64,000 bases of DNA from Kiritimatiellia bacterium (GTDB taxonomy: Bacteria; Verrucomicrobiota; Kiritimatiellia; RFP12; DVOR01), in contig JAVBMC010000046.1 of assembly GCA_031552845.1 (NCBI GenBank), forward strand, positions 863 to 64,862, written 5' to 3'. A program made the translations under genes and the position numbers. Below, one piece after another: positions 16,336 to 43,248 of the stretch; the stretch's first letter is position 1, and each line of letters starts with the position of its first letter. A model generated the notes under the pieces. That model saw only the letters and a program-made list of their open reading frames with translations, searched no databases and had not been told where the DNA came from.

Positions 16336-16535
16336 GCTCACGCGGAGACGCGGAGGCGCGGAAAGAAACTGACACGGTTGTTGGGCAGGGCGTGTTTCGC
16401 CGAAACCGCTGTGTGTGTTCGATGGAGTCGGTGAAATCGACGAAATCGCGTACTGTTTCTGGGAGCGCCGGCGTCCTCGCCGGCATTTGTGTGTGTCTCT
16501 CCTCTCTTTCCGCGCTTCCGCGTCTCCGCGTGAGC
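16336..16535. repeat. 30-bp inverted repeat pair (1 mismatch) enclosing ~140 bp; MITE-like or long hairpin
   Basis: GCTCACGCGGAGACGCGGAGGCGCGGAAAG at 16336..16365 and its reverse complement (one A/G difference) at 16506..16535. The enclosed segment contains the GTTTCGCCGAAAC palindrome. Confidence 0.6.
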
Positions 16536-16587
16536 TTCTTCTTCCCCTTGTCTTTATTGAGGTTCATTCTTCCGCAAACTTTCCCTC

Positions 16588-16615
16588 TTGACTTACTCCT
16601 TAATTCTGCTAAACT
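16588..16615 (+). promoter_or_regulatory. Sigma70-type promoter (TTGACT-N16-TAAACT) for HU-like gene copy 1
   Basis: TTGACT 16588..16593 and TAAACT 16610..16615. The same element and flanks are found at 41921..41948 upstream of copy 2. Confidence 0.55.
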
Positions 16616-16897
16616 GCATCCCCGTTGACCCCATTGAGTGACTCGTCACTGATTCGGATCTTGAGGCTCGGAGTTCCAAGCGAATCTCCGCCCCCCGACA
16701 TACGAGAGCTTAAGCTCCAAGGAGCCATCAACTATAAAGACTGCCCGTTTGGCCGGCGTGCAGTCCAGATGCCAGGGGGATATCCACCAATCGCACGAGT
16801 GTGCTGTATGGTTTATTCGGAATCGCTTTGGCGTCGGGTTGACAGACGCCGCCGACTGCCAGCATCAACTATAGGCGGCAAGAAAGAACAAGACATC

Positions 16898-17638
16898 ATG
16901 TCAACAACAACAAACGAGCCCACCAGCTCGATTCAGGTACAAATCGTCAAGCCCGTCTCCGGCGAGCTTGTTAAGGACGGACTGCAGACGGTGAAAGCCA
17001 TCTCCCGCAGCACCGTCTCCAACGCCCAGCTCCTCGACTTCATGGTCGGCGACGGCGGCGGCATCAGCAAACCTCAAGCCAAGGCTTTTTACGAAGCCTA
17101 TGCAGACACCGTCAGCCGGTTGCTCCTCGCGGGACACAACATCCCCGTGGGCGACCTCGGTTACCTGCACGTCACGGCCAAAGGCGTGTTTGATGCGGAA
17201 GGTAAACCCGTGGAAGGTAAAGAGCTGATCTTCAAGATCAAGTTCCTGCCCAAGAAGGTCGTCAAAAACCTTCTGGCGAACCTGCCCTATGAAACCGTCG
17301 AAGCTCACGACCGCCAGCCCCGTCTGAATACGGTGACCGACAGCATTACGCTGAACGTCAACTCCGTCGTCACACGCGGGATGTCGGCCAAGCTCAACGG
17401 CAAGAACCTCAAATTCCACCCCCTCGTGGCTGACGAAGGCCTCTTCTTCGTTCCCGTCGAGGGTGGAGCTGCGGTCAAGGTCACCCAATTCCTCGACAAC
17501 CGCGACGTACGTCTCACGTTCAACGTGCCGGGTGAACTCACGGAAGGCACCAACTACCGCCTCGAAGTGCGCAAACGCTTCAGCGGGTGCAAGGCCTTAC
17601 GTATCGGAACCCTTGAGAACACGCTCAGCGTGAACTAA
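16898..17638 (+). CDS. HU-like DNA-binding protein (Bacteroidetes-type HU_2 N-terminus) with DUF4469-like Ig-fold C-terminal domain, copy 1
   Basis: 246 aa starting MSTTTNEP. Overall architecture and the C-terminal block HPLVADEGLFFVPVEGG match the DUF4469-type family. The ORF-track upstream extension (16625) runs through a leader that is conserved at the nucleotide level but not in reading frame. Confidence 0.55.
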   Translation: MSTTTNEPTSSIQVQIVKPVSGELVKDGLQTVKAISRSTVSNAQLLDFMVGDGGGISKPQAKAFYEAYADTVSRLLLAGHNIPVGDLGYLHVTAKGVFDAEGKPVEGKELIFKIKFLPKKVVKNLLANLPYETVEAHDRQPRLNTVTDSITLNVNSVVTRGMSAKLNGKNLKFHPLVADEGLFFVPVEGGAAVKVTQFLDNRDVRLTFNVPGELTEGTNYRLEVRKRFSGCKALRIGTLENTLSVN

Positions 17639-17671: not shown

Positions 17672-17710
17672 AGGGGCAGGCGCCACATCGGCGTCTGCCC
17701 CTTTTTTATT
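17672..17710 (+). terminator. Rho-independent terminator
   Basis: GGGGCAGGCGCC-ACATC-GGCGTCTGCCCC followed by TTTTTTATT. Confidence 0.7.
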
Positions 17711-17777: not shown

Positions 17778-17865
17778 GGCTCACACAAATTATCCATACG
17801 GCTCGCGCATTTTATCCATTGGGCTCAGTCAAAATACCCGCCCGGCTCACGTAAATATCCGAGCT
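17778..17865. repeat. Four tandem 22-bp direct repeats (iteron-like array) downstream of HU-like copy 1
   Basis: Units start at 17778, 17800, 17822 and 17844: GGCTCACACAAATTATCCATAC / GGCTCGCGCATTTTATCCATTG / GGCTCAGTCAAAATACCCGCCC / GGCTCACGTAAATATCCGAGCT. Confidence 0.75.
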
Positions 17866-18074
17866 ACGTCGCGGGACGCCAACATGAGACATCAGGTAAT
17901 GAGTGAGAAGTAATAGGTAATAAGTGTGAGAGGTATAGTGAAAATACTGAAAGAAGATGGAATAAAAGTTCATGTAGAGAAAATTGTCCTAAGACGGCAC
18001 AGATCCAAACAGATAATGGGAAAAGCAGTCAGTAAAGGTGATAGATAATACGTGGGGGAGACTAAACGCGGTAC

Positions 18075-18153
18075 GGCGGTTTCGGCGAAACCTACCCTAC
18101 CTTTGAGAGTAGGGCTGACGCGGTTGTTGGGTAGGGCGATGTTCGCCGAGCGC
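18075..18153. repeat. Palindrome-plus-hairpin repeat element (GGCGGTTTCGGCGAAAC ... CCCTACC-TTTGAGA-GTAGGG ... GTTCGCCGAGCGC)
   Basis: 13-bp perfect palindrome GTTTCGGCGAAAC at 18079..18091, followed by hairpin CCCTACCTTTGAGAGTAGGG. Related copies at 16393..16408 (reverse complement), 41841..41856 and 43207..43248. Confidence 0.7.
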
Positions 18154-41744: not shown

Positions 41745-41840
41745 TTGTGTGAATCACGGCGCGGCGCGTTCAGTCACTCTTCCCCTTGGGAGCGCGGGCA
41801 TTCCTGCTCGCATGATGTTTGTGTGTGCGTCAGCGGGTGC

Positions 41841-41856
41841 GGCGGTTTCGGCGAAG
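41841..41856. repeat. GGCGGTTTCGGCGAAG palindrome-family repeat (5' flank of HU-like copy 2)
   Basis: Same motif as 18075 and 16393. Preceded by GGGTGC as in the 43202 copy. Confidence 0.6.
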
Positions 41857-41920
41857 TCGATGAAGTCGAGTTTGTGTCTCCCCTGAGCGTACCAGCGTCC
41901 CCGCCGGCATTCTTTCCCTC

Positions 41921-41948
41921 TTGACTTATCCCCTTAATCTGCTAAACT
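41921..41948 (+). promoter_or_regulatory. Sigma70-type promoter (TTGACT-N16-TAAACT) for HU-like gene copy 2
   Basis: Nucleotide-identical core to 16588..16615. Followed by a ~250-nt leader about 85-90% identical to the copy 1 leader. Confidence 0.55.
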
Positions 41949-42197
41949 GCAACCCCGTTGACCCCATTGGGTGACTCGTCACTGACGCATGGCGCATACG
42001 AGAATCCAAGCTCCAAGGAGCCATCAACTATAAAGGACAGCCCGTTTGGCCGGCGTGCAGTCCAGATGCCAGGGGGATATCCACCATCGACGCGAGTGCG
42101 TCAATCGGTCTACTTCGGAATCGCCATGGCATCGGGCTGACAGACGCCGCCGGCTGTCAGCTTAACACTTCAAGGCGGCAGTTAGGAAATTAAAACC

Positions 42198-42908
42198 ATG
42201 GCTATTCGATATCACTTAGGGCCCGCGCTGCGGGCGGATCGGGCGGCGGCGGGCGAGATGATTGTGCATTCATCCACCGCACTGCGCATTCAGCAAGAGG
42301 AACTCGCCGACGAACTCGTCCGCCAAGGGACAACCGTGCGCCGCGCCGATGTGCTGGCCGTACTCGATAATCTCGGACTCGCGGTGGGGCACCTGTGCGC
42401 CCGCGGCATTGCGGTTTCAATTCCGAATCTCGGCACCATGACCCCGCGCGCTCGGGGCGTGGTCGATCGCAACGGCGCGTGGGTCCGCCCGCTGGAGGGG
42501 TACTTGACGCTACAAGCCGACCGCGGGCTGGAGGCTGTTTTCAATCAACACGCAAAGTTCCAAGAAGTCCCCCGCAAACCGGTACGCGCCATCATTCGGC
42601 GGATTTTCAACGTAACTGCCGCTCCGGGAGATGTCCGGCTCGTGCCGGGTGATGTGTTCGAAGTACAAGGCCGGCATTTACGGTTCAATGCCGCCGCGGC
42701 CGATGAAGGGATTTTTCTGAAACGCGCCGAGGGTTCAACTACGGAGGAGGTCAAGGTGATCGAGGTTTGGCCCCAGACCCCCTCGCGGGTACTCTTCCGC
42801 GTGCCGACCACAATCATGCCCGGGGACTGGTTATTAGAGGTGCGGGTCCGCCAAAAGGACTGTTCACGCGTAACCGTGTCCGAACCGCAAATTATTTTGA
42901 CCTGTTGA
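42198..42908 (+). CDS. HU-like DNA-binding protein with DUF4469-like C-terminal domain, copy 2
   Basis: MAIRYHL N-terminus typical of Bacteroidetes-type HU_2 family proteins. C-terminal NAAAADEGIFLKRAEG block parallels copy 1. RBS-like AGGAAATTAAAACC precedes the ATG. Confidence 0.55.
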   Translation: MAIRYHLGPALRADRAAAGEMIVHSSTALRIQQEELADELVRQGTTVRRADVLAVLDNLGLAVGHLCARGIAVSIPNLGTMTPRARGVVDRNGAWVRPLEGYLTLQADRGLEAVFNQHAKFQEVPRKPVRAIIRRIFNVTAAPGDVRLVPGDVFEVQGRHLRFNAAAADEGIFLKRAEGSTTEEVKVIEVWPQTPSRVLFRVPTTIMPGDWLLEVRVRQKDCSRVTVSEPQIILTC

Positions 42909-42935
42909 CCGCTCCGTTTATATGTGCGTACGCTT

Positions 42936-43045
42936 CACGGGCTTGCAACCCCGTCATCACGGGCTTCGAACCCCGCGCCCGCGGGCTTGCAAGCCCCACC
43001 CGATGGGCTTATAAGCCCGTGGACGCAGGCTTATAACCCCGCACG
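42936..43045. repeat. Five tandem 22-bp repeats, each a small palindrome (GGGCTTGCAAGCCC / GGGCTTATAAGCCC type), downstream of HU-like copy 2
   Basis: Unit starts at 42936, 42958, 42980, 43002 and 43024, exact period 22. Unit shape nnnGGGCTTnnAAnCCCnnnnn. Confidence 0.8.
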
Positions 43046-43206
43046 CAGATAGTGCGTGTTGCGGTGTTGTTCAACCAGTGCTGCGGCACTTGCGCACGGT
43101 TGGTGCAGTGCGGAATCAATCGCATTAGCCCTGCTGGCTCCATCTCATGACTTCTCCGATTTTCACCGACTTCTTCGATAATGTTGTGGGTGCGGCGGTC
43201 TCGGCG

Positions 43207-43248
43207 AAACGCGCCCTACCTTTTGGAAGTAGGGCTGGCGCGGGCATG
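43207..43248. repeat. Palindrome-plus-hairpin repeat element (GGCGGTCTCGGCGAAAC..GCCCTACC-TTTTGGAA-GTAGGGC)
   Basis: Homologous to 18075..18113. Flanked by ~32-bp direct repeats (approx. 43132..43166 and 43268..43302: C.GGCTCCA.CTC..GACTTC.CCG). Confidence 0.65.

Follow-up and report, generated by a model that had tools for sequence, protein, structure and literature searches.

Positions 42936-43045 of the DNA analysed here, a 64-kb stretch of contig JAVBMC010000046.1 from a Kiritimatiellia bacterium (hereafter the window, taken at its full length of 64,000 nucleotides), carry an array of five palindromic units, termed array B, beside a gene, termed gene B, whose product combines an HU-HIG domain with an Ig-like DUF4469 domain. 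The array is real and non-random. Comparison of related sequences makes it somewhat probable that it is a cluster of cognate cis-sites, to which dimers of the adjacent HU-HIG/DUF4469 protein would bind cooperatively and sequence-specifically on duplex DNA. As far as our searches show, the gene-array module is widespread and, in the literature searched, undescribed.

Structure and statistics of array B

The five units can be read directly from the sequence, the frame 42936-43045 holding exactly 5 x 22 bp and the start-to-start distance of the units being 22 bp in 4/4 intervals, as the first-pass annotation of this DNA had described (Table 1). Its further statement that GGGCTT recurs at a fixed phase holds for the phase, but unit 5 opens with AGGCTT. 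Unit boundaries are reproducible under formal repeat detection, with Tandem Repeats Finder calling a period of 22 at 42935-42997 and 43006-43048, and a repeat search of the window also yielding a four-copy family at spacings of 22, 22 and 22.

Allowing up to two mismatches, GGGCTTNNAAGCCC occurs nine times in the window against 2.25 +/- 1.55 times in shuffled sequence (0/100 shuffles reach nine); the five best matches constitute array B and every other match in the window has two mismatches, so that the over-representation is due to the array only. On the 22-bp lattice, 7.4 of 9 dyad positions are Watson-Crick symmetric, compared with 2.5 +/- 1.5 over all axes in the region, and all five central dinucleotides are self-complementary (GC, CG, GC, AT, AT; chance about (1/4)^5). 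Palindromy is perfect in units 3 and 4 and is interrupted in units 1, 2 and 5 by a C·C break at dyad positions 4/11. The first dyad lies 31 nt past the stop codon of gene B.

Array B is not a generic repetitive extragenic palindrome (REP). Such elements and the related bacterial interspersed mosaic elements (BIMEs) resemble it as short GC-rich imperfect palindromes that are sometimes clustered downstream of genes; unlike REP, a single family with hundreds of dispersed copies, the motifs considered here are private to one locus. The motif of array B is unique in the 64 kb, and locus L004, from the same sample as the window, holds one copy, beside a paralog only. When 185,579 species genomes were scanned for two phased units, the only matches were three GGGGTTGAAACCCC arrays (L001-L003), which are unrelated and none of which adjoins an HU-HIG gene. 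These GGGGTTGAAACCCC / GGGGTTTCAACCCC arrays share a 22-bp period and lie at 328-363 in L001, 770-936 in L002 and 2632-2715 in L003, the hosts of L001-L003 being a metagenome-assembled genome (MAG) of Deltaproteobacteria, a Bdellovibrionota MAG and Chitinophaga filiformis. The L002 array immediately precedes a 597-aa ORF that has no match in Pfam, and the L003 array abuts the stop of a 201-aa ORF.

The adjacent HU-HIG/DUF4469 protein

The HU-like neighbour named in the first-pass annotation was confirmed by Pfam, as ORF 42198..42908 matches HU-HIG at 28.1 bits (cut-off 26.2) and DUF4469 at 37.6 bits (cut-off 22.6). The protein has the domain order of the Ig-fused subclade of the HU-HIG clade, that is, an N-terminal HU/IHF fold (PF18291/PF14848) followed by a C-terminal DUF4469 domain (PF14734). 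Its AlphaFold model (pLDDT 89.9) comprises an HU fold with an intact beta-arm at residues 79-107 and then the Ig-like domain. In Foldseek searches this model matched PDB 4FMR from Bacteroides vulgatus best (E = 2e-14), with chains of HU and IHF ranking next and the N-terminal domain being the part that matches HU/IHF structures; 4FMR was also recovered by phmmer. Judged from the modelled fold, it is plausible that protein B is a dimeric DNA binder.

Linkage of private arrays to the gene family

Relatives were chosen by protein homology alone and came from metagenomes, Parabacteroides distasonis, Fulvitalea and Treponema. An exhaustive profile-free search gave 412 family representatives of about 235 aa, a word-indexed homolog search with protein B returned the protein itself and one paralog only, and a metagenome scan with a seven-sequence alignment added six loci, mostly short. 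A scan of viral contigs and a tblastn search of plasmids with protein A, the product of a second family gene in the window (gene A), gave no match. For an independent test set (L020-L025), family genes were taken from an annotated plasmid collection, with selection by tblastn alone.

A downstream array was found at 12/16 evaluable family genes against 1 of about 80 other genes (Fisher p = 3e-11), and the test set by itself shows arrays at 6/6 genes against 1/80 (p = 1.4e-8). These downstream arrays have a period of 22-24 bp and each its own motif, usually dyad-symmetric and, in all sequence compared, private to its own array; they stand beside this gene family in at least three identified phyla in addition to the lineage of the window. 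Within the test set the period is about 23 bp in 6/6 loci, the spacing being exactly 23 bp in L022-L025, and the array starts 0-25 nt past the stop codon in L021-L025 and beyond a terminator in L020. Furthermore, across 50 kb (40 genes) of P. distasonis, 3/3 arrays of period at least 20 bp adjoin HU-HIG genes. The adjacent HU-HIG protein is the only locus-specific dimeric DNA-binding candidate present every time. Since private arrays follow most family genes, the probable ligand of each protein is the array that neighbours its gene.

Arrays of 21-22-bp period were also seen upstream of family genes. In L008 (482-579), a 4.5 x 22-bp array lies about 550 bp upstream of the HU-HIG gene, beside a divergent methyltransferase-like gene. 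In L026 (38842-38893, 25616-25657), 2.4 units lie about 120 bp upstream of a P. distasonis gene annotated as 'HU family DNA-binding protein', a winged helix-turn-helix (wHTH)-fused form by appearance, and 2.0 units lie just upstream of a DUF4469 gene.

Constraint and co-variation of the half-sites

Within arrays the arms are conserved and the 7-8-bp spacers differ, which points to a constraint that reaches beyond pairing to the sequence itself. In a comparison of P0001 with P0002, paralogs sharing 73% identity, 13/14 positions of the first dyad agree and its offset is unchanged; identity is 52% in the preceding 33 nt and 36% in the following 60 nt. In the syntenic orthologs L024 and L027 (58% aa identity), CATGATAGCTATCATG has become CCTCATAGnnATGAGG, with changes that are symmetric in both half-sites (positions 2/15 and 4/13), and both loci keep four units and the 23-bp period.

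A separate observation concerns L004 (1-830) and L005 (window 42079-42908), 73%-identical paralogs from one sample, which form a mosaic: DNA identity is 91-92% over the leader and codons 1-100 (HU domain) and 61% over codons 101-236 (Ig-like domain), and the Logan contigs of both break at the same upstream base. Gene conversion may account for this pattern, or else diversifying selection acting on the Ig domain.

Proposed mode of binding

The proposal of the first-pass annotation that dimers of the HU-like neighbour bind cooperatively is sustained by evidence of a comparative kind: the linkage, the private 22-24-bp arrays in at least three phyla and the symmetric change of half-sites. In such a mechanism the HU-HIG protein would homodimerise like other HU-fold proteins, and one dimer would occupy each 14-bp dyad (half-site GGGSTT) through contacts of the HU beta-arms. 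Since the 22-bp repeat corresponds to about two helical turns, five dimers would be aligned and touching, plausibly via their Ig-like DUF4469 domains, and a discrete nucleoprotein block would thereby form directly behind the gene. Gene and array would then form an orthogonal protein-site pair diverging together. As to its role, we can only guess at a roadblock or insulator, a titration site beside a strongly expressed gene, or a chromosomal landmark.

There is precedent in the fold. IHF, Borrelia Hbb and phage SPO1 TF1 are site-specific HU-fold dimers that insert their beta-arms into the minor groove; they share the dimeric fold of protein B and demonstrate that the HU fold can be sequence-selective. 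The two kinks in solved IHF/HU-DNA complexes lie about 9 bp apart, a distance that fits half-site centres about 8 bp apart. Unlike the arrays, these proteins use single wrapped sites of about 30-35 bp (asymmetric for IHF), as opposed to 14-16-bp dyads repeated in tandem at 22-24 bp, and units only 22 bp apart leave too little room for DNA to be wrapped fully as by IHF.

Several observations weigh against cognate binding to duplex DNA. Four evaluable family genes have a terminator without a downstream array (L008/L014, L013 and both copies in L012/L016), and L004 has one good dyad only. A palindromic 23-bp array in the window (59384-59473) adjoins no HU-HIG gene. In eight loci the array precedes any terminator and would hence be transcribed, and the arrays of L024 and L027 are flanked by a closing stem, with one sense-strand G·U, which is RNA- or single-stranded-DNA-like. 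No copy of the motif occurs at the gene B promoter, so that classical autorepression is not indicated. In addition, a published analysis held, on the basis of the 4FMR structure, that the Ig domain constricts the HU clasp, making DNA binding there unlikely, and regarded such proteins as unlikely sequence-specific transcription factors (Burroughs et al. 2017, PMC5499826).

Two of these points have a more detailed context. In L012 (1062-2646), a small ORF separates two tandem HU-HIG/DUF4469 paralogs, both of which lack an array; a classic terminator closes the second of them. An array is hence not obligatory for the family. The array at 59384-59473 consists of about four 23-bp units with the palindromic core GATGGGAsTCCCATC and lies in the interval flanked by the start of purL (59262, minus strand) on one side and, on the other, by the stop codon of a non-HU gene of 166 aa (59532..60032, minus strand).

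Alternative explanations

An element acting at the level of RNA, in which the array would form 3' UTR hairpins that protect or terminate the mRNA or would be an RNA ligand for HU-HIG self-regulation, appears unlikely. In its favour, arrays begin 0-31 nt past the stop with no terminator between in 8/12 loci, and in the window a terminator-like hairpin follows array B (43041..43072); if that hairpin is used as a terminator, array B is transcribed as 3' UTR. The terminator consensus scan did not call this hairpin. Taken as a whole, the 171-nt region gives a more stable fold than its shuffles (z = -3.6 and -4.1), and the closing stems of L024 (2172-2284, 13 nt, with the G·U) and L027 (2287-2425, 19 nt) are of completely different sequence, so that the structure has been kept through full turnover. 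Moreover, HU proteins bind RNA. For Ig-fused forms in particular, RNA or protein ligands have been proposed (Burroughs et al., PMC5499826).

Against an RNA element stands the conservation of the arms of each array in sequence and not in pairing alone. The broken pairs are C·C or U·U (C·C in array B) and show no wobble bias: across arrays, non-pairing positions read in the sense strand comprise 13 G·U, 16 A·C and 46 other combinations, and an RNA wobble signature was rejected on these counts. Hairpins of 3/5 units in the window fold no better than shuffles, the units of array A, the second array of the window, do not fold, and arrays lie beyond a strong, classic terminator in four loci (array A, or wA, L007, L019 and L020). 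A general closing stem around arrays was also rejected, being strong in L024/L027 only, marginal in wB and L006 and absent elsewhere, and the constant 22-24-bp period has no obvious RNA rationale. The 64-kb window contains no tRNA and no Rfam family; Rfam 15 at gathering score gave none in the window and only a tRNA in related loci, and sub-threshold matches to miRNA precursors were set aside as spurious long-hairpin matches. The statement that the array could equally form a multi-stem RNA is thus not favoured. Given the conservation of the arms, the symmetric turnover, the lack of wobble, the poor folding and the arrays beyond terminators, the sequence evidence favours duplex DNA recognised by what would be a dimeric, locus-specific protein.

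A different factor could also be responsible, the arrays being operators or recognition sites for some other protein, for instance a regulator of the HU-HIG cassette or one that recombines or mobilises a cassette delimited by X elements (described below), with the HU-HIG protein a non-binder; we hold this to be improbable. Copies of X bracket both modules of the window and occur nowhere else in the 64 kb, XRE-type helix-turn-helix (HTH) genes are close by in L004 and L019, and arrays are found upstream of HU-HIG genes (L008, L026) and beside a non-HU gene (59384-59473). In addition, HU-HIG genes show cassette-like turnover and lack conserved neighbours (PMC5499826). Set against this, no other gene is consistently adjacent across the 12 loci, each private motif would need a private partner, the HU-HIG protein is the only rapidly diverging DNA-binding candidate at every locus, and X elements were seen in the lineage of the window only.

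It is very improbable that the arrays are a non-functional by-product, left by local slippage that multiplied a terminator-like palindrome without any selected role. Such arrays would most obviously originate by tandem duplication, and the single good unit of L004 against five in the window would be in keeping with it, but the pattern recurs in independent lineages with different sequences while a period of 22-24 bp and 3-5.5 units are kept, arms are conserved as spacers diverge, half-sites turn over in a compensatory manner within a retained architecture, the dyad is a conserved island between paralogs, and the link to one gene family is statistically strong (p = 3e-11).

Plasmid-type iterons, or a parS/sopC-like centromere, of an integrated or cryptic replicon can be dismissed as scarcely credible, for although the period of about 22 bp is that of classical iterons, placement downstream of the presumed binder gene recalls P1 incA, F incC and F sopC, and the unrelated 22-bp array of L002 lies upstream of a large ORF with no Pfam match, the context is one of chromosomal housekeeping genes, no Rep, ParA, ParB or ParR domain occurs in the neighbours scanned, DnaA boxes are not enriched, GC skew shows no switch, and the modules are repeated, at least two lying within 26 kb and P. 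distasonis records containing at least four gene-array loci (L022-L025).

Comparison with known systems

The likeness to plasmid iterons or partition centromeres drawn in the first-pass annotation did not hold up, as the window is chromosomal in context (nusA, infB, mscS, ilvD, purL) and no Rep or Par protein adjoins the array. The iterons of theta plasmids (7 x 22 bp in the R6K gamma-ori, 4 x 22 bp in pPS10; for P1 incA and F incC, on the downstream side of rep) are direct repeats of 17-22 bp that are asymmetric and to which winged-helix Rep proteins bind as monomers; on a plasmid they are accompanied by an AT-rich unwinding element and DnaA boxes. Array B shares with them the tandem period (exactly 22 bp in five units; iterons have 3-9 copies), a position near the binder gene, sometimes downstream, and a sequence private to each replicon or protein. 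It differs in that its units, like most of those described here, are dyads, its neighbour has an HU fold, and it is chromosomal, with no Rep protein or DnaA-box cluster. No Rep initiator gene stands beside array B, where the neighbour is HU-HIG/DUF4469 and the flanking ORFs have no Rep domain in Pfam; DnaA boxes are not enriched (18 matches against 11.6 +/- 3.2 expected, none at array B); and the local GC fraction is 0.53-0.61, with no switch of GC skew here.

Partition centromeres (sopC, parS, ParR-parC) likewise present dyad units directly downstream of a binder gene (here a presumed one) and orthogonal pairs that diverge together; F sopC, for instance, lies downstream of sopB and has 12 units of 43 bp, in each of which there is a 7-bp inverted repeat. 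Unlike them, the present modules have no ParA-type ATPase and no ParB/ParR fold, their period is 22-24 bp and not 43 or 11 bp, and several occur per chromosome. Among the ORFs between 31.5 and 61 kb that were scanned, Pfam gave no ParA-type NTPase and no ParB/ParR.

The HU-HIG clade has been treated as a Bacteroidetes radiation, with no cis-sites described (Burroughs et al. 2017, PMC5499826). The proteins considered here resemble that clade (4FMR, BVU_2165) in their HU and Ig-like DUF4469 domains, fast-diverging paralogs and lack of conserved operon partners; they depart from the published picture in including members from a non-Bacteroidota window and from Treponema, each with a linked private array. 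No earlier description of these arrays was found in the open-access PMC and bioRxiv literature.

Further classes were considered for the arrays and rejected. An intrinsic terminator within 42936-43045 was not found by the consensus scan, and the units have no T runs. A CRISPR array, with its repeats of 23-50 nt and unique spacers of about equal length, does not agree with 14-bp dyads and 8-bp spacers, nor were cas-like domains present in the scanned neighbours. An integron attC-like cassette site does not agree with the own promoter of each gene or with tandem arrays in place of single imperfect palindromes. For array A, whose units contain TTATCCA, an oriC or DnaA-box cluster was rejected on the DnaA-box counts and GC skew given above.

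Module A and other elements of the window

Module A comprises gene A and array A. Protein A reaches 56 bits for DUF4469 (cut-off 22.6) and remains below the Pfam cut-offs for HU-HIG (22.9 against 26.2) and HU-DNA_bdg (25.3 against 30). Arrays A and B have an equal 22-bp period and unrelated sequence, and the dyad symmetry of array A is weak. In a whole-window repeat analysis and in blastn, 16579-16863 matched 41912-42161, the promoter and leader of gene B, at 87-93% identity.

The leader of about 250 nt is conserved among HU-HIG genes of the lineage of the window (41949-42197, 16616-16897, L007 1838-2088, L017 924-1175 and L006 128-275), and the leaders of the two window paralogs are 87-93% identical despite 24% identity of their proteins. 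The 16-mer AGCTCCAAGGAGCCAT of the gene B leader is also found exactly in the distant relatives L007 and L017. RNAalifold on the leader gave 20 pairs, six of them with compensatory changes, in only five sequences. The HU-HIG leader is a candidate for a new cis-regulatory leader.

The core of the X element, GGTTTCGGCGAAAC, has four copies only in the 64 kb (16394, 18078, 41844 and 43197), all flanking HU-HIG modules. It is near-palindromic (GGTTTCG-G-CGAAACC), and the long copies add a CCCTAC...GTAGGG hairpin. The copies at 41836-41857 and 43189-43243 bracket module B, and those at 16387-16409 and 18070-18123 bracket module A too; X may be a cassette boundary mark or a further binding site. Just upstream of the module A promoter, a 31-nt inverted repeat (16336-16366 / 16505-16535, 97% complementary, 138 nt apart) encloses the left X element.

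Table 1. Features of the window and arrays at related loci. Positions are those of the window; identities are to protein B or protein A.
Feature	Position	Strand	Identity	Description
Array B	42936..43045	none		five 22-bp units, each a 14-bp dyad GGGSTT-NN-AASCCC and an 8-bp non-conserved spacer
Unit 1	start 42939 (dyad 42939-42952)			GGGCTTGCAACCCC
Unit 2	start 42961 (dyad 42961-42974)			GGGCTTCGAACCCC
Unit 3	start 42983 (dyad 42983-42996)			GGGCTTGCAAGCCC
Unit 4	start 43005 (dyad 43005-43018)			GGGCTTATAAGCCC
Unit 5	start 43027 (dyad 43027-43040)			AGGCTTATAACCCC
Gene B	42198..42908	+		236-aa HU-HIG (HU fold, beta-arm) and DUF4469 (Ig-like) protein; candidate binder
Gene B promoter-like site	41921..41948	+		TTGACT-N16-TG-TAAACT; inside a block 93% identical to the gene A promoter block
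Gene B 5' leader	41949..42197	+		about 250 nt, 87-93% identical to the leader of paralog A
Candidate intrinsic terminator of gene B	43041..43072	+		hairpin CACGCA-GATAG-TGCGTG and U-rich tail; -14.1 kcal/mol, z = -2.6
X element downstream of array B	43189..43243	+		GCGGCGGTCTCGGCGAAAC...CCCTACC-TTTTGGAA-GTAGGGCTGGCGCGG; 84% identical to 18070-18123
Partial X element	41836..41857	+		GGTTTCGGCGAA core; upstream of the gene B promoter
Gene A	16898..17638	+	24% to B	second HU-HIG/DUF4469 paralog, 246 aa
Gene A promoter-like site and leader	16588-16615, leader to 16897			near-identical to the gene B counterparts
Classic intrinsic terminator of gene A	17673..17707	+		GGGGCAGGCGCC-ACAT-CGGCGTCTGCCCC then TTTTTT; between gene A and array A
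Array A	17778..17865	none		four 22-bp direct units GGCTCA-N8-ATCC at 17778, 17800, 17822 and 17844
X element downstream of array A	18070..18123	+
Inverted partial X element	16387-16409			upstream of the gene A promoter
L004 (P0002, same sample as the window)			73% to B	one perfect GGGCTTGCAAGCCC, at the offset of unit 1
L006			40% to B	GGAyACAGCTGTrTCC; CAGCTG cores at lattice positions 0, 44, 66
L007			37% to B	terminator, then 22-bp array (22 x 3.0) and GGTTCCGGAACC sites
L009/L010			41% to B	four units at exactly 22 bp, directly after the stop
L019			30% to A	terminator, then 5.5 x 24 bp around AAACTAGCTAGTTT
L020 (Fulvitalea axinellae)				terminator, then cluster of ATACsCTmGT motifs, 23-bp period
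L021 (Treponema saccharophilum)				GCGy-N10-rCGC
L022 (Parabacteroides distasonis)				GGTAA-N7-TTACC
L023 (Parabacteroides distasonis)				CTAAACG..TTTAG
L024 (Parabacteroides distasonis)				CATGATAGCTATCATG
L025 (Parabacteroides distasonis)				GGACAACGTTGTCC

Biological significance

Especially in gut Bacteroidota, HU-HIG proteins occur in abundance, have expanded by lineage and diverge rapidly; they were previously without a known ligand or function; the sole published analysis found argued against sequence-specific DNA binding by them (PMC5499826). A linked private dyad array is an obvious candidate target for each such protein, by which the function of the family becomes directly testable. 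It is possible, and for the present a tentative proposition, that HU-HIG/DUF4469 proteins are not generic nucleoid proteins and instead constitute a large, fast-evolving family of binders of private specificity, each for an array of 3-6 units and 22-24-bp period beside its own gene. If this is true, orthogonal protein-site pairs would co-diversify after duplication, and such pairs could be self-contained chromosomal landmarks, insulators or self-recognition modules in genetic conflict. A family that has dozens of paralogs in gut Bacteroidota would thereby gain its first cis-target and a function open to direct test, and the arrays would offer a natural set of candidate orthogonal protein-DNA pairs for studying the evolution of specificity in the HU fold.

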